64,000 nt of DNA from Escherichia coli (GTDB lineage: Bacteria > Pseudomonadota > Gammaproteobacteria > Enterobacterales > Enterobacteriaceae), in the NCBI RefSeq assembly GCF_001677475.2, contig NZ_CP015229.1, one strand, 5' to 3'. The notes under the pieces are model-generated. The model did not search any database. It saw only the letters and a program-made list of their open reading frames with translations, and had not been told where the DNA came from. Positions within the stretch are counted from its first letter, which is position 1, and each line of letters begins with the position of its first letter. Shown here piece after piece: positions 1-11,252 of this stretch. Both the position numbers and the translations under genes were made by a program.

Positions 1-1832
1 AGAACCGCCGCAGCCACAAACGCGGCAACAATCAATCCGACCGGACTGAACAGCGCCCCGATAGCGCCACCCAGCAACGAGATGGAACCTGTTACCATTC
101 CCCATAGTGCTGGCAGCACCCTGACGACATTCATTGATCCGGTCAGGAGAGAAAAACCAAGACGTAACGTGGCCAGTTTCCCGTGAAGCACGCCAATAAC
201 CAGCGACAACGAGCCAATCGTTGCAGTCATTGCCAGCAACGCACCGCCTGCTATCAGTAGCTGGCGCGTCAGTGCCGGATGGGCCTGCGCCAGCGCCGTC
301 ACCCTTGATACCACCCGCGTGAGCCACTGCGTGACAGAACGCAGCGGGCCGTCAATCAGATCTGCAATGCGGATGCGCAACCCTTCCCATGCACTGCCGA
401 GTGATTTCAGATCGCCATCAAGGTTGTTGGCCATAACCTTTGCCGTGCGTTCAGCCTCACCGCGTGCGCCTTCAAGTTCTTTTCTCAGTTTGGGTAAGGA
501 ACCGTCACCTGCCGCATCAACGAGGGCCATAAACGATGTGAAAGCCTCTTCCCCGGCGATGTCCTTAAAGAAGGATACCCGGTCAACTTCCCCGTATTTG
601 CGGGTGGCTTTATAAAGGTCGGCCAGCACATCCTCCATCGGGCGCATTTTGCCGTTCGCGTCAGAAACTGCCACACCAAGCTCTTTCAGCGCCTCTGCTG
701 CTGCCTTTGGCGGTGATGCCAGACGAGCCAGGCTGGCACGCATTGCCGTCCCGGCATCACTCCCTCTGATACCCATATTCGCCAGCACGCCCGCCATCGC
801 TGCGGCCTGCTCCAGCGATATTCCCAGCTTACCCGCCACCGGACCTGCATATTTCATGGTTTCGCCCAGTGCGCGAAGGTCAGTGTTGGTACGGGTAAAC
901 GCTGCGGTGAGTGTGTCACCAACCCGGTCCATCTGGTCAGCAGAAAGGCCGAACTGCGTCAGGATATTTGAGCCAATATCCGCCGTCTCGCCGAGATCCA
1001 TACCGCCAGCCGTTGCCATGCTCAACACGCCGGGAAGCGCAGCCTGAATGGCCTGCGGTGTGAAGCCAGCCATTGCAAGAAATGCCTGTCCACTGGCGGC
1101 ATCGCCTGCGGTGAACTGCGTTTCAGAGCCAAGTTTTAACGCCTGCTCACGCAGCGCCTTAAACTGTGGGCTGTTCTGGTCGATTCGCGTCAGTGCCTGA
1201 ACGCGGGACATCTCTTTCCCGAACCCGATCGCAGGCTGCAAAAAACGCCCGGCAGCATAGCCGCCAGCCGCTGCCGCACCAATTGCCAGCGCACCACCTG
1301 TTTTCAGTTTTCCAGCAGTTTCCTGCGCGCGCGAATACCGCTCACGCGCCCGCGTTACACGCGCAAGCGTCTGCCGTTCGCGTTCAAGCTGGTTGTTGTA
1401 CTGTTCGGTGCGTCTGATGGCCTGCTGGATGGTGTTATCGCTGCCTGTCAGGGAAATGCCGTGGCGTTTCAGCTCTCCGCCAAGCTCCCGCATTTTCTGA
1501 ATTTCCCGTGTGCGCGATTCATTCAGGCGTTCAAGCCGGGTGCTTAACTGCTGCATCAGCTTTTGTTGTTTTTCGCTGAGCACTGTACCCGTGCGTTGTA
1601 ACTGATTAAGGGCGTTAAGCTGGCGTCGTGCTTTCACGATGCCCGCATCCGCTTTACTGACAGCGTCACGGGCGCGCTCAAACGAACGCGCCTGACGCTC
1701 GAGATTTTTGATCGCCCCCTGCGTTCGCTGGATGGAGTCACCAAACTGCCCCATCAGGCGGCGGGCGTTTTCGGCAGGCCGGGTCAGCCTGTCAACGGCG
1801 CTGAAAGCGACCCGGATATCAAGAGTCTTCAT
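1..1832 (-). CDS. Phage tail tape measure protein (P2 gpT-like), 3' end truncated by window edge
   Basis: Open minus-strand frame from ATG at 1832 (alternative ATG 1841) to position 1; translation MQTMKTLDIRVAFSAVDRLTRPAENARRLMGQFGDS... is coiled-coil rich and sits directly downstream of E/E' as in P2. Confidence 0.7.
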   Translation of the reverse strand, partial: MKTLDIRVAFSAVDRLTRPAENARRLMGQFGDSIQRTQGAIKNLERQARSFERARDAVSKADAGIVKARRQLNALNQLQRTGTVLSEKQQKLMQQLSTRLERLNESRTREIQKMRELGGELKRHGISLTGSDNTIQQAIRRTEQYNNQLERERQTLARVTRARERYSRAQETAGKLKTGGALAIGAAAAGGYAAGRFLQPAIGFGKEMSRVQALTRIDQNSPQFKALREQALKLGSETQFTAGDAASGQAFLAMAGFTPQAIQAALPGVLSMATAGGMDLGETADIGSNILTQFGLSADQMDRVGDTLTAAFTRTNTDLRALGETMKYAGPVAGKLGISLEQAAAMAGVLANMGIRGSDAGTAMRASLARLASPPKAAAEALKELGVAVSDANGKMRPMEDVLADLYKATRKYGEVDRVSFFKDIAGEEAFTSFMALVDAAGDGSLPKLRKELEGARGEAERTAKVMANNLDGDLKSLGSAWEGLRIRIADLIDGPLRSVTQWLTRVVSRVTALAQAHPALTRQLLIAGGALLAMTATIGSLSLVIGVLHGKLATLRLGFSLLTGSMNVVRVLPALWGMVTGSISLLGGAIGALFSPVGLIVAAFVAAAV

Positions 1833-2357
1833 TGTCTGCATTCCCGCTGCGAAGTGCCGCCCGCTCACGCCAGCTAACCACTTCGCCGGGCGTCATCATG
1901 AAGATTTCGGCGGGCGACCAGTTAAAAATGGCGGCGATATCTGCCACCAGATCTTCGATGTGCTCAAAGCACACCAGGGTAATTACGCTGCCGTCTCCTG
2001 CACGCTCTTCGCGCCAGAGTCTGGCTCGCTCATAAAATTTACAGCCACAGCGCACAACTGAATAAAATCGCGTGACGACATTTTTTTAATCATCACTTCA
2101 TCCAGTCGTGGCGAGGTCACGCGAGGCAACAGCGTAAACATGGTATCCGCTTTCAGATTCAGCACATCAGACAGCGACAGACCACGCAGGGATCCAGCCT
2201 GCTCAATAGCCCCGGTGATCTCCACATACGTGATTTTTTCGCCACCACGCTCAATTGGTCGGGTCAGTTTTACGCCACGTTCGACAGCCATATCCTCACC
2301 TGCCGTCACATCATCCGCCACGGTGTTATTCCGGGTTTCAGTATCGATGTCTTTCAT
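1819..2357 (-). CDS. Predicted E+E' fusion made by -1 programmed ribosomal frameshift
   Basis: The E' ORF is in the -1 frame relative to E; a candidate slippery heptamer AAATTTT lies at 2034..2040 (minus-strand sense) inside the overlap. Confidence 0.45.
1983..2357 (-). CDS. Phage tail assembly chaperone (P2 gpE-like)
   Basis: 124-aa ORF between the tube gene and the tape measure gene; an overlapping -1 frame ORF (1819..2055) fits the E' extension. Confidence 0.65.
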   Translation of the reverse strand: MKDIDTETRNNTVADDVTAGEDMAVERGVKLTRPIERGGEKITYVEITGAIEQAGSLRGLSLSDVLNLKADTMFTLLPRVTSPRLDEVMIKKMSSRDFIQLCAVAVNFMSEPDSGAKSVQETAA

Positions 2358-2412
2358 CAGTTGTCTCCTTTTCAGTCAGAGGCGACGCACTGCGCCGCCT
2401 GCATATTACTTA

Positions 2413-2925
2413 TCAGCCAAGCCCAAGCGCGGAACGGATACGGTCAGGCACAATGTCCTTGCCGTCCTTCCGGTAGATGTGGTTCAACAGGTCGATTTCC
2501 CACAGCGGGCGATCGTTAACGCTCAGCTTGTAGTAGGTGTTTTTGACAGCGTAAGTGTGTGATGTGGCTTCGCCCTGTTTGGCTTCCCCCATATCAATTT
2601 CCGTCACACGCCCACGCATCTCGATTTCATACAGATCGCTTTCTGCATCGGTGTAGTATTCACCCGCAAAACGCAGCAGCGTGCCGTCAATCGTGCCGCC
2701 ATATTTAAGGAACAGCGCACGAACAGCTCCCCCCATGACAAAACTCGCATCAAGCGCGGAGTCGTCCAGACCGAGATCAATACTTACCGCCCCCATCATG
2801 CCACCACCACGATAGCTGTCGGTTTTGCGCGTCAGTTTGGGCGGCGTGACGGATGTCACTTTACCCACTTCGTTTTCACCATCCACAAACAACGTAAAAA
2901 AGCGAAGATGTTTTGGTACAGCCAT
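2413..2925 (-). CDS. Phage tail tube protein (P2 FII-like)
   Basis: 170-aa ORF; motifs TPPKLTRK, YRGGGMMG, DLGLDD, MRGR, EIDMGE, KQGE resemble P2 FII; its ATG overlaps the FI stop (ATGA). Confidence 0.85.
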   Translation of the reverse strand: MAVPKHLRFFTLFVDGENEVGKVTSVTPPKLTRKTDSYRGGGMMGAVSIDLGLDDSALDASFVMGGAVRALFLKYGGTIDGTLLRFAGEYYTDAESDLYEIEMRGRVTEIDMGEAKQGEATSHTYAVKNTYYKLSVNDRPLWEIDLLNHIYRKDGKDIVPDRIRSALGLG

Positions 2926-4109
2926 CAGGCACCTCCCAGCACCGCAAATGCGGGACCAAAGAATTCATCAGTAAACGTCTGGTAAAGCTCCATGTCTTCC
3001 AGCGGGGGAACAGGCGTATATTTGTAGCGAATACGCACACGTCCCTGACGTAAATTCGTGGTGCCGTTATCCACCACGTCATACCAGCACTCCGCGCCAA
3101 TCAGTTTCCCGGCAGTAACCAGCGAATCCAGTTTTGCCCTGATGGCACTGATAACATCCTTCACGTTCGCAGGCGTCAGTGGACTGTCGATGGTTTCAAA
3201 CTGCGCTTCCGCAATTGAATCAGCCAGCACCTGTGCGGTTCGGGTATACACCTCAAAGATGTAGGCGTTCGTTTCCGGTGTGCGGTTGCCCCAGAAGCGG
3301 AACCCGTTGCGACGAATAATGGTCGTGATTTCTTTGTTGTTGAGGCTGTTGGCATCGCTGTCTTCGGCCTGCAACGACCAGAACACATGCCTCGACATCC
3401 CCAGCACATTTTTAACCGGAACGTTGGACAGTGATTTGTGCCATCCCTGCTCATGGTCAATGTACGCACGAAGGCCGCACGCATAGGCAGGCGCGGGGAA
3501 CGTTTCGTTTTTGCCACTTTTCGGGTTGTAGGCGATGAAGTCTGGCCATAAGAGCATCACCTCACGTTCGTTGAATTTCTGGCGGTAGGTAATTGCCTCG
3601 GCCATCGTGTTACAGCCATGACATGAGGCATACACAAACGCGCGCAGTTTACCCGCAATCACGCACAGGGATTTTGTCACCGCCTCCGTGTCCAGCTCCG
3701 GCGCGGCCAGAATACGCGGACGGTATCCGATGCTTTCATCCTGCTCTGCAACAAGCAGCGCATACATCCCCGTATAGCTGCCGTCAGATTCAGAACCACC
3801 GATAACCAGTTGATCCTGCGTTTTTCCGTCTTCTTCTTTGTGTTCAGCCACGCGAACGACGATCACCTTTGTGCTCACCTGGTCTGCGATGGCCTTAAGC
3901 GCACGATAAAGCGTCCCCGTTGTTCCGCATTTTCCCAGCACGTCATTGACGCGGGTCAGCAGTGTGGGCTTGTTCAGCGGGAACAGCTCCGCGTCCGCAT
4001 CATCTGCCGTTGCCACGATACCGATAACACTGGAATCAACATCATTAATCGCTGTTACCAGGTCGGTACTTTCCGTAACACGGGCACCATGAAAACGAGT
4101 TTCACTCAT
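2925..4109 (-). CDS. Phage contractile tail sheath protein (P2 FI-like)
   Basis: 394-aa ORF; motifs DADAELFPLNKP, AYRQKF, WPDF, DHEQGWHKSLSNV, IRRNGFRFWGNRT, YTRTAQV, YKYTPVPPLE match the P2 FI sheath as I recall it. Confidence 0.9.
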   Translation of the reverse strand: MSETRFHGARVTESTDLVTAINDVDSSVIGIVATADDADAELFPLNKPTLLTRVNDVLGKCGTTGTLYRALKAIADQVSTKVIVVRVAEHKEEDGKTQDQLVIGGSESDGSYTGMYALLVAEQDESIGYRPRILAAPELDTEAVTKSLCVIAGKLRAFVYASCHGCNTMAEAITYRQKFNEREVMLLWPDFIAYNPKSGKNETFPAPAYACGLRAYIDHEQGWHKSLSNVPVKNVLGMSRHVFWSLQAEDSDANSLNNKEITTIIRRNGFRFWGNRTPETNAYIFEVYTRTAQVLADSIAEAQFETIDSPLTPANVKDVISAIRAKLDSLVTAGKLIGAECWYDVVDNGTTNLRQGRVRIRYKYTPVPPLEDMELYQTFTDEFFGPAFAVLGGA

Positions 4110-4266
4110 AGCTTCAGCCCCTTGTATCCGTTAAATGATTCGGCAACAATCATCACCCACCACGCGCGTAATCTCACCCCTGCGCCGTTCTCCCGCCACG
4201 GCGACAACAAAAAGCAGTAATCCCCTCCGCACGCACATGCGACCATGCCGCACAGGGAGGGAACAG

Positions 4267-5376
4267 ATGACCGACACCACCATGCAATTGCTCAGTCAGG
4301 GCACAGACCCCGTGAAAATGCCGGATTTTGATATTCTCGCGGAGGGTAAAACGCTGTCAGGCGTGGCAGAGCGCCTGATGAGCCTGTCACTGACCGACAA
4401 CCGGGGATTTGAGGCGGACCAGCTCACCATCACGCTGGATGATGCGGATGGTCAGTTGCAGCTACCGCCACGGGGCGTGCGCCTGACGGTTCTCATTGGC
4501 TGGAAAGGAGAACCGCTGACAGAAAAAGGCACTTACATTGTTGATGAAATCGCTCACGAAGGACCGCCGGACAGGCTGACTGTTTCAGCCAGAAGCGCAG
4601 ATTTTCGGGATGAATTTAACGTTAAACGTGAGGTGTCCTGGCATGATGTGACCGTTGAGCGTGTGGTATCCGCCATCGCTCATCGGTACGGTCTGAAACC
4701 GCAAATCAGCGAAATGCTGATGGATATCGAAATCGACCACGCCGACCAGACCGAAGAAAGCGACATGTCCTTCCTTACGCGCATGGCGGAAATGCTGGGC
4801 GCAATCACCACGGTAAAAAGCGGCAATCTGTTATTCATCATGCCAGGTGGTGGCGTGAACGCACAGGGCCAGCCGTTGCCATCGTTCGCCATCACACGCA
4901 GCAGCGGCGATCGCCATCAGTTCCGCATTGCTGACCGCGAGGCGTATACGGGGGTGCGCGCCTACTGGCTTGATCTTAACTATGGGAAAAAGAAAAAAGT
5001 CAGCGTGAAACGCCGCAAACCACCCAAACCGAAAAAGGAGAAAAGCAGCAGCCGCGAAGGTGACTATATGGAAGGTGCGGAAGGCAACGTGTTTGTGTTA
5101 CGCAAGACTTATCAGAACGAGCAGGCAGCAAGACGCGCAGCGGCGGCAAAGTGGCAGCAGCTACAACGCGGAGCCGCATCATTTTCCATCACGCTGGCAC
5201 GTGGACGCGCAGAACTCTACCCCGAAATGCATGGCACAGTAACAGGATTTAAAAGCGAGATTGATAATCAGGACTGGATTATTGCAAAAGCCGAGCACAC
5301 CATTGATAACAGCGGCTTTACCACGCAGCTTGAGCTTGAGGCAAAAATCCCGGAATGGATAGCAGAAACAGAGTGA
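4267..5376 (+). CDS. Phage late control / tail protein D (P2 gpD family)
   Basis: ORF track 4135..5376; probable start at ATG 4267 preceded by GGGAGG; motif SLSLTDNRGFEADQLTITLDDADGQL is typical of the Phage_GPD family. Confidence 0.75.
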   Translation: MTDTTMQLLSQGTDPVKMPDFDILAEGKTLSGVAERLMSLSLTDNRGFEADQLTITLDDADGQLQLPPRGVRLTVLIGWKGEPLTEKGTYIVDEIAHEGPPDRLTVSARSADFRDEFNVKREVSWHDVTVERVVSAIAHRYGLKPQISEMLMDIEIDHADQTEESDMSFLTRMAEMLGAITTVKSGNLLFIMPGGGVNAQGQPLPSFAITRSSGDRHQFRIADREAYTGVRAYWLDLNYGKKKKVSVKRRKPPKPKKEKSSSREGDYMEGAEGNVFVLRKTYQNEQAARRAAAAKWQQLQRGAASFSITLARGRAELYPEMHGTVTGFKSEIDNQDWIIAKAEHTIDNSGFTTQLELEAKIPEWIAETE

Positions 5377-5502
5377 ACAACCTCGACGTTTTATTTAATA
5401 TACAAAAGCCTTCTGGACACGGTAAGGCAAGAACAAGGATAGAAGATCCTTTACAGTCAGAGTTACAGGTTATACCTGTAAGCAAAAACAAAGGCATATA
5501 TT

Positions 5503-6261
5503 ATGTTCAGTTTGTTTTCGTTAACTGCCGGAGCAAATGTGCGCTGGCATGATTTACCTGGTCAGGGTATTCCTGTTGTTTTTATTCATGGACTTGGCTG
5601 TTCCTCTTCTTATGAATATCCACGGGTTGTTGCAGATCCTGTATTTGGTGGACAACGAGCGATATTGATAGATCTCCCTGGATATGGATTCAGTGATAAG
5701 CCTAAAGGATTCGATTACAGCATATCCCATCAAGCTAAGGTTGTTATTGAAGTAGTAGAAACCTTAAATCTCTCACAGTTCCATATTTATGGTCACAGTA
5801 TGGGGGGAAGTATTGCGATTGAAGTAGCCAGACAACTACATGAGAGAACAAGAAAGCTTGTGGTTTCTGAGCCTAATTTTCACTCTGGTGGAGGTACCTA
5901 TAGCCGTAAGATAATAGAGAAGCCAGAAGCAGAGTTTATTTCGCATATATATAATGAATTACTGGAGTGTGAAACATCCCCATGGAAAGGTGAACTCCAG
6001 AATGCAGCCCCATGGGCAATATGGCGAGGAGCCAAAAGTCTGGTTGATGGAACCACTCCATCATGGCGAGATATATTCCTTAATCTGTCCTGTTCACGAA
6101 CACTAATTTTTGGCGAACAATCATTGCCAGATAATGATTTCCAGTATATAAAAGAATCAGGAATATCTGTTGCAATAGTGCCAAACGCCGGACACTCCAT
6201 GTCATGGGAAAACCCATCAGCACTGGCCGAAATTTTACACACAGAATTTTATAAAGAGTAA
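5503..6261 (+). CDS. Alpha/beta-fold hydrolase (probable esterase/lipase-type serine hydrolase); AT-rich cargo gene
   Basis: 252-aa ORF; N-terminal VVFIHGLG, nucleophile elbow GHSMGG, C-terminal NAGHSMSW candidate His; codon usage visibly more AT-rich than the flanking phage genes. Confidence 0.6.
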   Translation: MFSLFSLTAGANVRWHDLPGQGIPVVFIHGLGCSSSYEYPRVVADPVFGGQRAILIDLPGYGFSDKPKGFDYSISHQAKVVIEVVETLNLSQFHIYGHSMGGSIAIEVARQLHERTRKLVVSEPNFHSGGGTYSRKIIEKPEAEFISHIYNELLECETSPWKGELQNAAPWAIWRGAKSLVDGTTPSWRDIFLNLSCSRTLIFGEQSLPDNDFQYIKESGISVAIVPNAGHSMSWENPSALAEILHTEFYKE

Positions 6262-6621
6262 AATTGCTCATATATAAATGTTGTTCCATCAGTATCATAT
6301 TATCAAAGGGCAGGAGGTAAATTTATCTTCTGCCATTTCACTCAAATCAGGCGATTTGATAGCACGCATTTTATGAGATGCTTGAAACTTATAAATATAT
6401 AAGAACGTCTTGTTATCAAAATATATAAGCACAGAAAGCAAACACTTTCCCATAATTACTTTGTTAATTTTTTGCCTGATAATAAATGGCATAATAAACA
6501 GTATCAGAGAGTATTTTTATTAATAATTAAACACACATTCCTCAATCTGACATGACTGTTAGTTGGCATATTTACAAATACAATTTAAAATAACGACAGC
6601 AAAACGTTAAGGGAGGTCGCT

Positions 6622-6882
6622 ATGTTCCGTTGTCCGCTTTGTGGCGCATCTGCCCGTATCCGCACCAGTCGTCCAGAAAATGATTCAAACACCGTACGGC
6701 AAAAGTATTACCAATGTAACAACCTGGAATGCGGCGTATGCTTCTCAACACTGGAAGCTTTCCATAAATTCACATCGAAACACGCCTCCGGCGCTCACTC
6801 TTCAGAAAGTATCCCGTGGCATGAACTGCCAGCTTCCCACAGAGGAAACAATCAGATGAGTTTGCCCTTACCTCAAAATTAA
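6622..6882 (+). CDS. Ogr/Delta-family zinc-finger late transcription activator
   Basis: 86-aa ORF MFRCPLCGASARIRTSRP...YYQCNNLECGVCFSTLE; the C-x2-C...C-x4-C pattern and MF-CPLC-RTSR motif match P2 Ogr; RBS AGGGAGG upstream. Confidence 0.75.
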   Translation: MFRCPLCGASARIRTSRPENDSNTVRQKYYQCNNLECGVCFSTLEAFHKFTSKHASGAHSSESIPWHELPASHRGNNQMSLPLPQN

Positions 6883-6942
6883 CAGGCAGAATTGCCGGAG
6901 TAACAAAAAAGCGATAGATTACGCGCGGGTGCCTTTCGGCTG

Positions 6943-7206
6943 ATGGTCGGAGGGAATACCCGAAGGCCAGATGTGGAAAGGCCCCGGAAAACATCTCTGT
7001 TTAACCGAGGCCCTAACCGCATTACCTTGACAAGTGAAAGGTTAGCGCCTCTCCGGAAAAGGAGCAAGTGCTATGTCGCAAAAATCGCTTACAGCCATCA
7101 CGTTCTGCGTGACGGCAATCCTCATCATCTGGATGCTACACGGTTCGCTGTGCGAAATACGGATGAGCTTCTGGGGAGCGGAGTTTGCGGCGTTCTTACA
7201 GTGTAA
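6943..7206 (+). CDS. mok-like overlapping reading frame (translational coupler for hok)
   Basis: 87-aa ORF in a different frame that overlaps almost all of the hok-like ORF, as in hok/mok/sok loci. Confidence 0.35.
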   Translation: MVGGNTRRPDVERPRKTSLFNRGPNRITLTSERLAPLRKRSKCYVAKIAYSHHVLRDGNPHHLDATRFAVRNTDELLGSGVCGVLTV

Positions 7207-7213
7207 GCAGTAA
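7073..7213 (+). CDS. Hok/Gef-family type I toxin (46 aa, single transmembrane helix)
   Basis: Hand translation ATG 7073 to TAA 7211: MSQKSLTAITFCVTAILIIWMLHGSLCEIRMSFWGAEFAAFLQCKQ; hydrophobic N-terminal helix followed by SLCEIR and AAFL motifs; RBS GGAG upstream; too short for the ORF track. Confidence 0.6.
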   Translation: MSQKSLTAITFCVTAILIIWMLHGSLCEIRMSFWGAEFAAFLQCKQ

Positions 7214-7302
7214 GGAAACCGCGACGGGGGAGCAATCCCCCGTCAATCGGTTGCCAGGGTAAGGTCGATAAGGCACCCTATCTCACAGACATGAACAACA
7301 AA

Positions 7303-7335
7303 CCCGCAACGTAAAAACTGCGGGTTTTCTTTTTG
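7303..7335 (+). terminator. Intrinsic terminator downstream of the hok-like locus
   Basis: Inverted repeat cccgca...tgcggg followed by ttttcttttt; an additional perfect hairpin gacggggg-agcaat-cccccgtc lies at 7221..7244. Confidence 0.45.
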
Positions 7336-7482
7336 GTGTCCTCACCGACTTGAAACAGTGATCAGACTATAAGACAAAGCCCACAATGTAGCTGGCTTAC
7401 TCCCCTCCCCCCCCACACTAAATGTGGACACATCGTGGAATGAAGAGATATAAAACATTATAAATCAATTGGTTATTGAAAG

Positions 7483-7508
7483 AAAAAAGGCCGCAGAGCG
7501 GCCTTTTT
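7483..7508 (-). terminator. ihfA intrinsic terminator (hairpin flanked by A/T runs on both sides)
   Basis: aaaaaaggccgcagagcggccttttt immediately downstream of the ihfA stop. Confidence 0.55.
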
Positions 7509-7520
7509 AGTTAGATCAGA

Positions 7521-7820
7521 TTACTCGTCTTTGGGCGAAGCGTTTTCGACCCGGCTTTTTAACTTCTGCCCGGGTCTGAAGGTCACCACGCGCCGTGCTG
7601 TAATGGGAATATCCTCGCCCGTTTTCGGGTTACGTCCCGGGCGTTGATTCTTATCACGCAGATCGAAGTTACCAAAACCAGAGAGTTTCACCTGTTCGCC
7701 GTTTTCCAGAGCGCGACGGATCTCTTCGAAAAACAGTTCAACCAGTTCTTTGGCATCCCGCTTGCTAAGCCCAAGCTTATCAAACAGATATTCTGACATT
7801 TCAGCTTTTGTAAGCGCCAT
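7521..7820 (-). CDS. ihfA: Integration host factor alpha subunit
   Basis: 99-aa [91 protein letters not shown]... Confidence 0.95.
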
Positions 7821-7824
7821 AGGT

Positions 7825-10215
<2,391 letters not shown>

Positions 10216-10226
10216 CTATTCCTGCC

Positions 10227-11252
<1,026 letters not shown>

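Follow-up and report, generated by a model that had tools for sequence, protein, structure and literature searches.

The next gene past ihfA in Escherichia coli K-12 is btuC, but in the strain of assembly GCF_001677475.2 a set of phage tail genes adjoins ihfA on this side, which raises the question of what element they belong to, whether it is decayed and where it ends. The window analyzed here is a stretch of 64,000 nucleotides of contig NZ_CP015229.1, and an earlier note had read its first 7,335 nucleotides as the remnant of a P2-like tail module. Our analysis indicates that positions 1–7503 very probably belong to a P88-like temperate myovirus, forming the ogr-proximal (attR) end of its prophage at the ihfA terminator. 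The features on which this reading is built are listed in Table 1.

Table 1. Features of the prophage end and its chromosomal flank in the window.
Feature	Position	Strand	Evidence and remarks
Tape measure T	1–1832	-	N-terminal 610 codons without stop; gene cut by left window edge
E' (GpE family)	1819–1974	-	PHROG 1756 E=9e-29
Tail assembly chaperone E	1983–2357	-	PHROG 103 E=1e-36; 75% aa identity to P88, 35% to P2 E
Major tail tube FII	2413–2925	-	TIGR01611 117 bits vs cut-off 103; 97% aa identity to P88
Tail sheath FI	2925–4109	-	PHROG 23 E=8e-126; 98% aa identity to P88, 48% to P2 FI
D (baseplate hub / late control D)	4267–5376	+	PHROG 52 E=1e-165; Pfam Phage_GPD 6e-17
Low-GC cargo insert, D-ogr slot	5377–6621	+	38% GC vs 55% in backbone; one gene
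Alpha/beta-fold serine hydrolase	5503–6261	+	252 aa; Pfam Abhydrolase_1 4e-20; GHSMG nucleophile elbow, residues 97–101
Sigma-70-like promoter TTGGCA-17-TAAAAT	6563–6591	+	Upstream of ogr, in right cargo flank; 10/12 consensus positions
ogr, Ogr/Delta zinc-finger late-gene activator	6622–6882	+	Pfam Ogr_Delta 8e-14; C4-X2-C7-X24-C32-X4-C37
hok/mok/sok-like type I toxin-antitoxin locus	6927–7213	+	Leader/sok-like region 6927–7086; mok-like overlapping ORF 6943–7206
hok	7073–7213	+	46 aa; PHROG 251 'MokW-like host killing' E=1e-22
Terminator-like hairpin + T-run	7300–7335	+	Inverted repeat 7300–7308 / 7319–7327
ogr-proximal attachment arm ('P arm' side, P2 nomenclature)	7336–7478	+	Absent from K-12 and P88; 94% identical to NCTC9022
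Candidate Int arm-type direct repeats TGTGGACA-N3-CGTGGAAT	7423–7441	+	Match P2-type consensus
Candidate IHF consensus AATCAATTGGTTA	7463–7475	+	3 bp from core; pattern occurs just twice in 64 kb
att core AAAGAAAAAAGGCCGCAGAGCGGCC, 25 bp	7479–7503		ihfA rho-independent terminator (hairpin + U-tract, minus strand)
ihfA, chromosomal flank outside element	7521–7820	-	Identity to K-12 and annotation

The products proposed for 1–7335 in the earlier note (T, E/E', FII, FI, D and Ogr) were all found to be encoded by uninterrupted genes and were matched by PHROG, NCBIfam and Pfam models as well as by identity to P2 and P88. The tape measure, for example, matched PHROG 28 (E=1e-181) and TIGR01760 (E=7e-88) and shared 97.7% aa identity with P88 T. 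Phage P2 (Peduovirus P2, NC_001895) has homologs of FI, FII, E, E', T, D and Ogr, and a tblastn comparison with P2 gave 32–49% aa identity (E values between 1e-12 and 1e-110). These family matches bore out the assignment to one end of a P2-family prophage. The same proteins were 75–99% identical to those of P88, compared with 32–49% for P2; D reached 99% against P88 and 49% against P2 D, and Ogr reached 96.5% against the P88 region and 38% against P2 Ogr. The start codon of D is likely the ATG at 4267, with GGGAGGG just upstream. In relatives, D carries the RefSeq name 'contractile injection system protein, VgrG/Pvc8 family'. The hydrolase and hok genes had been overlooked in the first reading.

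A slippery heptamer A_AAT_TTT was located at 2040–2034 on the minus strand, and an overlapping -1 ORF (1819–2055) runs on into E'. E' is thus predicted to be made as an E+E' product by -1 frameshifting at this heptamer. The P2 genome annotation describes an equivalent E+E' -1 frameshift, a likeness between P2 and the window that extends to the Ogr/Delta zinc finger.

At the nucleotide level, close phage relatives showed 92–97% identity over 79–82% of the visible 7.5 kb (1–7500). P88 (Xuanwuvirus P88, NC_026014), Xuanwuvirus P884B11 and Citrobacter phage PhiSM each aligned at 95–97% nt identity over 81% of this region, and the uncovered part was the cargo. Over the common backbone, P88 and its relatives were ~95–97% identical to the window in nucleotides and 75–99% in amino acids, with T, E', E, FII, FI, D, ogr and hok in the same order and on the same strands. 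P88 and PhiSM are active temperate phages (PMC5285337, PMC6456863). We are highly confident that the element is P88-like and of the family Peduoviridae, and regard it as a probable member of the genus Xuanwuvirus, judged from the 7.5 kb of the element visible in the window, the genus criterion being a whole-genome one.

The strand arrangement at first suggested a rearranged element. The genes from FI to T lie on the minus strand and D and ogr on the plus strand, whereas the P2 order FI-FII-E-T-U-D-ogr is on one strand. An inversion of a P2-type tail operon, suspected from the divergence of D from FI, was considered and rejected, since P88 is arranged likewise: its genome carries invertase, U, T, E', E, FII and FI on one strand, followed by D and hok, in agreement with the window in order and strands. 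As judged from these genomes, the opposite strands of FI-FII-E-T and D are the native order of inducible P88-like phages (P88, PhiSM). Because this order is native to P88 (Xuanwuvirus), the departure from the P2 arrangement speaks against P2 proper (genus Peduovirus) and not against the family. P2 also differs from the window in its genus, in using locI as its attB and in having neither a hok locus nor cargo between D and ogr.

Downstream of D, the right end of the module contains ogr and a hok/mok/sok-like locus. Canonical Ogr-type TGT-N11-13-ACA sites (including TGT-N12-ACA) were not found between FI and D, between D and the cargo, or between the cargo and ogr. The hok product matched the HokA NCBIfam model with E=2e-8, under the model cut-off, and the Rfam sok match scored 48.4 bits, under the gathering score of 59. 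An NCBIfam search of a further ORF in the window (15359–17257) gave no match. Similarity to P88 stops at 7334, and copies integrated at another site end at 7336–7345. The terminator-like hairpin at this point marks the end of the backbone common to P88 and to copies integrated elsewhere; position 7335, given earlier as the end of the element, closes only the module shared with P88.

Beyond the hairpin, the element runs on to the core at 7479–7503. Homology to K-12 begins exactly at 7479, and 7479–8000 is 100% identical to K-12, in line with the proposal that the element is a strain-specific insertion at the place where ihfA and btuC are neighbors in K-12, with a spacer of ~100 bp. The ogr gene adjoins the attachment site. 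Just inside the core lie candidate Int arm-type repeats, resembling the P2-type Int arm consensus tgTGGaCa (PMC3448106) and expected 0.07 times per window by their pattern, and a candidate IHF site. P2 has the same order of terminator, Int arm with TGTGGACA repeats, IHF site and core. The putative P2-type attP features of the window thus comprise arm repeats and an IHF site together with a core of the same sequence as attB, and the statement that no att repeat is visible has to be amended, as one 25-bp core copy is present. On this sequence evidence, the right boundary of the prophage is 7503, at the ihfA terminator that forms the core, and not 7335. Because the whole terminator, hairpin and U-tract, is inside the duplicated core, integration would leave ihfA with a terminator and place another copy ahead of btuC. 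P88 differs from the window in its attachment site, a 14-bp GCCACCCGAAGGTG, and its integrase shares 44% aa identity with that of NCTC9022.

To place this junction among other strains, 5,426 complete E. coli genomes were considered. The ihfA-side junction was present in 296 of them and the btuC-side junction in 303, so that the locus occurs in ~5% of complete E. coli genomes, at a phage att site that is either empty or filled. In NCTC9022, the space between ihfA and btuC is filled by a complete prophage of ~36 kb, whose int and C genes are nearest btuC and whose two ends each carry an identical copy of the 25-bp core; in JB2 the two junctions are ~35 kb apart. In SE11, a 35.8-kb P2-like prophage, PP_SE11-4, was published in 2008 as lying "between btuC and ihfA", its insertion marked by a duplication of 25 nt. 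Equivalent prophages were found in NCTC9022, O26:H11 11368, O55:H7 CB9615, E2348/69 and O111 strains, and same-site relatives contain an integrase, the C/Cox switch, replication gene A, capsid and terminase genes, and cos. PP_SE11-4 and its equivalents share the btuC/ihfA site and the junction sequences with the window but have different D-ogr cargo (HxsDBCA, a PIN-domain protein, hypothetical proteins, or none), and NCTC9022 is the only btuC/ihfA-site relative with a hydrolase, at 91% nt identity to that of the window. The window holds only one end of the element, as had been recognized; integrase, repressor, capsid genes, cos and the other core copy would lie outside it. By analogy with these relatives, the present copy would reach ~29 kb further left, to an integrase adjoining btuC, and would probably be inducible, as is P88.

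These comparisons bear on the description of the element as a remnant, namely a prophage reduced by deletion or rearrangement to the tail module, D and ogr beside ihfA. The window shows nothing left of T, and IS2, ISCro1, IS100 and ISEc20 insertions occur in this end of some relatives, as decay would have it. However, all eight visible genes are full length relative to P88, the divergent D is native to P88 and needs no rearrangement, and the frameshift site, the ogr promoter-like element, the hok locus and the att arm with its candidate Int and IHF sites are all kept. Moreover, the near-equal numbers of the two junction types in E. coli and the 35–36 kb length of the examined copies at the site (complete in NCTC9022, JB2 and SE11) argue against loss. 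The visible first 7.5 kb is without any sign of a broken remnant, and we regard decay as improbable.

The tail and regulatory genes, which are all that the window shows of the element, together with the injection-system label on D in relatives, could also suggest a domesticated contractile-tail cluster (tailocin or R-type bacteriocin-like) that has retained tail genes only and is no longer a phage. We consider this very improbable indeed: among the relatives at 92–97% nt identity over this end are complete phages that have genes for portal, terminase and capsid as well as for lysis, replication and integration, an intact att arm with candidate Int and IHF sites would be unexpected in a fixed tailocin locus, and only ~5% of E. 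coli genomes carry the locus, at an empty-or-filled phage att site.

A P88-like prophage at the ihfA terminator therefore remains our preferred reading, in which a P2-type tyrosine integrase would insert the phage between ihfA and btuC, at a 25-bp attB formed by the ihfA transcription terminator. From left to right, the integrated end would consist of the late tail operon FI-FII-E(E+E')-T, read leftward, then D, read rightward, a presumably horizontally acquired alpha/beta serine hydrolase cargo, and ogr as the late-gene activator. These would be followed by a hok/mok/sok-like addiction module, the terminator, an attachment arm with two putative Int arm-type sites and an IHF site, and the core. 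The prophage type and its attachment site are ordinary and already known; the sole unusual part is the rare hydrolase cargo gene.

Only five of the 5,426 complete E. coli genomes contained the hydrolase cargo. The best match reached 91% nt identity, and none was identical to the present variant. Comparison of the hydrolase with NCBIfam and PDB sequences gave generic alpha/beta-hydrolase similarity only, all far under family cut-offs, and the cargo segment had no match in the phage collection. PADLOC defence models (E<=0.01) did not match the hydrolase, Ogr, Hok or D. We infer that the prophage expresses this hydrolase as a moron, a gene for lysogenic conversion.

The slot that holds this gene proved to be a hotspot, at which 19 types of cargo were counted over 79 related loci; it measures only 45 bp in 37 of the 79, and the P88 slot is likewise an empty 45 bp, in contrast to the filled slot of the window. 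Few of the 19 cargo types match known or candidate defence families. Most cargo types, with flanks judged by eye and not by scripted count, retain hexamers, like those of the promoter upstream of ogr, near TTGGAG/A-N17-TAGAAT despite differing spacers. Terminal inverted repeats are weak (~72%), belong to only some cassette types and are absent from the cassette of the window. The flanks were also considered as a mobile MITE- or IS-like element, which was rejected: the right flank occurs only 1–3 times per genome, apparently only in such prophages. Flank co-variation inside cassettes was not detected (identity 0.464 within vs 0.463 between cassettes; 4,687 of 10,000 permutations reached the observed value), and RNAalifold gave no consensus structure for the left flanks. 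As a conjecture to which we give a low probability, P88-like phages may exchange cargo at the D-ogr slot within a conserved frame, made up of left and right flanks of ~60–100 bp that weakly resemble each other in inverted orientation, with the 7-bp ACTTAGA found singly where the slot is empty and on either side of the cargo where it is filled. The mostly unannotated cargo of the slot, including the present hydrolase, may then hold new lysogenic-conversion or anti-phage functions.

For annotation, these results identify the element as a P88-like prophage with its true boundary at the ihfA terminator, a published attachment site. They remove a false impression of rearrangement or decay and provide exact coordinates for the att core and the candidate Int and IHF sites. 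The D-ogr slot is the only part with discovery potential, a compact place in which new phage-carried functions, the rare hydrolase included, may be sought.

Searches against PHROG, NCBIfam and Pfam models agreed that the P2-family products named in the earlier note are real, with matches far beyond chance, as listed in the table. Among the predicted ORFs and their translations, none of the minus-strand tail genes T, E', E, FII and FI was interrupted. At 2040-2034 on the minus strand, the canonical slippery heptamer A_AAT_TTT joins E to an overlapping -1 frame that runs into E', and GGGAGGG is located seven bases 5' of the D ATG.

Coordinates and family matches of the phage genes and the hok locus
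Feature	Position	Strand	Match or remark
T, tape measure	1-1832	-	610 codons without stop, continuing past the window edge; PHROG 28, E=1e-181; TIGR01760, E=7e-88
E'	1819-1974	-	PHROG 1756, E=9e-29
E	1983-2357	-	PHROG 103, E=1e-36
FII, tube	2413-2925	-	TIGR01611, score exceeding the cut-off
FI, sheath	2925-4109	-	PHROG 23, E=8e-126
D	4267-5376	+	PHROG 52, E=1e-165; Pfam Phage_GPD, 6e-17
ogr	6622-6882	+	Pfam Ogr_Delta, 8e-14
sok-like region	6927-7086		Rfam sok, 48.4 bits, under the gathering score of 59
mok-like overlapping ORF	6943-7206		
hok	7073-7213		PHROG 251, E=1e-22

Escherichia phage P88, Xuanwuvirus P884B11 and Citrobacter phage PhiSM shared 95-97% nucleotide identity with 81% of the 7.5-kb element, and the uncovered 19% is the cargo between D and ogr. 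The gene products showed 75-99% protein identity to those of P88 and 32-49% to those of P2. In P2, the order FI-FII-E-T-U-D-ogr is collinear, unlike that of the window, whereas the P88 genome record has the window's layout: an invertase (plus strand), U, T, E', E, FII and FI (all minus), and D and hok (both plus), with D and hok near the end of the record, adjoining int. A rearrangement that left D divergent from FI, which is apparent only against P2, was thus ruled out, as this is the native order of the genus. P88 was recovered by mitomycin C induction (PMC5285337) and PhiSM has been described as spontaneously active (PMC6456863), indicating that the gene arrangement is compatible with a functional phage. 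P2 Ogr binds motifs of the type TGT-N11-13-ACA, none of which occurs in the 157-bp divergent FI/D intergenic region (4110-4266); if both late transcription units start there, the activator site must deviate from the P2 consensus.

The chromosomal boundary was located by comparison with K-12, in which btuC is the gene beyond ihfA. In the window, ihfA (7521-7820) is followed by pheT and pheS on the minus strand. K-12 was 100% identical over 7479-8000 with nothing matching leftward, and the match started at the same base, 7479, in 5,129 of the 5,425 E. coli genomes matching a junction probe. Strain NCTC9022 carries a complete prophage flanked by btuC and ihfA; its int and C repressor genes lie toward btuC, and AAAGAAAAAAGGCCGCAGAGCGGCC is present at both of its ends. 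The window copy of this 25-bp att core occupies 7479-7503. The end at 7335 proposed in the earlier note was not borne out, since both the core and the K-12 identity start at 7479. Similarity to P88 does stop at 7334, directly past a hairpin and T-run (7300-7335), and the following 143 bp (7336-7478) match neither K-12 nor P88 and are 94% identical to NCTC9022. This segment is the attachment arm of a different integrase module.

On the minus strand, the att core is the ihfA terminator, consisting of the hairpin GGCCGC-TCT-GCGGCC followed by TTTTTTCTTT. Because the hairpin and TTTTTTCTTT both lie within the duplicated core, the whole terminator is contained in it, and ihfA would retain its terminator upon integration. 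The enterobacterial sRNA STnc540 of the ihfA 3' end was also matched by Rfam at 7427-7579 (minus strand; 42.8 bits, gathering score 38). The hairpin that terminates this sRNA is the phage att core, and integration therefore swaps the sequence downstream of that terminator.

As judged from predicted sites, the arm has the anatomy of P2. Putative Int arm-type sites, TGTGGACA-N3-CGTGGAAT, were found at 7423-7441, and the int-side arm of NCTC9022 contains TGTGGTCA-N3-TGTGGATC in the same orientation. The chance expectation for this repeat pattern is 0.07 per 64 kb. The P2-type Int arm-site consensus is tgTGGaCa, and direct repeats flank the core on both sides (PMC3448106). A predicted IHF site with the exact consensus (WATCAANNNNTTR) is located at 7463-7475, 3 bp off the core, and is one of only two matches window-wide. 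The annotated attP of P2 has the same order of ogr, terminator, Int P arm, IHF site and core. We consider it very likely that this end of the window is the attR, the ogr-proximal end, of a P88-like prophage that has inserted at the ihfA terminator. Prophages of this kind are ordinary, and both they and the site are already described.

Of 5,426 complete E. coli genomes, 296 had the ihfA-side junction and 303 the btuC-side junction; in 278, a single region covered at least 80% of window 1-8000. Carriers include O26:H11 11368, O55:H7 CB9615, E2348/69 and O111 strains. The junction-to-junction distance was approximately 35 kb in JB2 and 36 kb in NCTC9022. The element had been read as a remnant, but its visible part has the native gene order and shows no sign of decay: the genes are as long as in P88, the E/E' heptamer is present, and so are the att arm, the hok locus and a promoter-like element for ogr. 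Judging from its relatives only, the window copy is quite probably complete.

The chromosomal backbone at 30000-54000 showed at most 97.9% identity over 24 kb to any of the 5,426 genomes, and the host lineage is probably absent from that set. Downstream of thrS, an uninterrupted 632-aa ORF (15359-17257, plus strand) is syntenic with a frameshifted "ShET2/EspL2 family type III effector" pseudogene of NCTC9022, to which it is partly homologous (64-94% amino acid identity in pieces); an NCBIfam search of this ORF gave no match.

Two features overlooked in the earlier note are the hok/mok/sok-like locus, the region of which is approximately 82% identical to a hok region of Stx phages, and the D-ogr cargo insert at 5377-6621. 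To compare the latter, the window and four E. coli loci were combined with 80 IMG/VR loci fetched with D as probe; D and ogr anchors were both present in 79 loci. In 37 of these the slot was empty, the D-ogr interval being 41-45 bp. The other 42 held cargo of 19 unrelated types, 1.0-3.8 kb long and invariably low in GC (32-43%). P88-like phages thus have a cargo hotspot between D and ogr. The two classical P2 hotspots are located elsewhere, at A-Q adjoining cos and at Z/fun (PMC9122126, PMC9519451). The D-ogr slot is probably covered by an earlier published description and hence not wholly new. Three cargo types had strong PADLOC matches to defence families, known or candidate (a PDC-S06 candidate, E=2e-277; a PifA-like protein, 1e-64; PDC-S31, 4e-27). 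A PsyrT-like PRTase matched weakly, and HxsB and HxsC gave only weak matches to pVip (viperin) models. No convincing PADLOC match, meaning none at all or weak short-stretch matches (E=7e-8 to 1e-3), was obtained for HxsA, HxsD, a 500-aa PIN protein, the hydrolase of the window, or cargo proteins of 340, 389, 473, 478, 932 and 1,039 aa.

Empty slots read TGA-GCAACTTAGAATAGCGGCAGCACCACGTTAAGGGAGGTCGCT-ATG. In filled slots, GCAACTTAGA is followed by TGCATTAGCTCAGAC... on the left, and ...GTCTGAGCTAGTACA by ACTTAGAATAGCGG on the right, such that empty slots have a single copy of the 7-bp ACTTAGA and filled ones have it on either side of the insert. Left and right flanks (approximately 5377-5440 and 6540-6600 in the window) are conserved among inserts and missing from empty slots, most clearly in the fetched loci L056 (8111-8200 / 10230-10290) and L057 (8118-8206 / 9814-9902). 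Once reverse-complemented, right flanks can be aligned with left flanks as a single family. The resulting inverted repeat is weak (approximately 72%), limited to some cargo types and not found in the window's own cassette; neither within-cassette covariation of the two flanks nor a consensus RNA fold was detected. With only 1-3 copies per genome, the flank is not a dispersed repeat. This pair of flanks could have originated from an old inverted duplication or from site-specific insertion. In most cargo types, the right flank has, as judged by eye, hexamers near TTGGAG/A-N17-TAGAAT with a variable spacer (TTGGCA-17-TAAAAT at 6563-6591 in the window), which look like an ogr promoter.

The insert of the window (1,245 bp; 38% GC versus 55%) encodes, at 5503-6261, an alpha/beta hydrolase of 252 aa whose GHSMG elbow is intact. 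This variant is rare: it was found in five of the 5,426 E. coli genomes (91% nucleotide identity) and one IMG/VR contig (97% amino acid identity), with zero matches in the phage collection. The family is widespread across Enterobacteriaceae (55-79% amino acid identity), and its homologues occur in three different settings. In E. hormaechei the gene is chromosomal; in Enterobacter sp. 638 it closes the tail module of another prophage, next to the tail-fibre assembly gene; and in Salmonella it adjoins the resolvase of a Tn3-family transposon. This distribution fits a phage-defence gene no better than it fits a generally useful passenger enzyme.

The P88 integrase is 44% identical to that of NCTC9022, and P88 uses a different, 14-bp att sequence (PMC5285337). 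Four mouse E. coli strains (including M8, L096) carry the same backbone, hydrolase cargo included (91% nucleotide identity), beside the tRNA-Leu/Cys/Gly cluster near pgsA. Their similarity to the window ends at 7336-7345, which indicates that the int/att module was swapped at the terminator at 7300-7335. Backbone and int/att module are exchangeable blocks, joined at approximately 7335.
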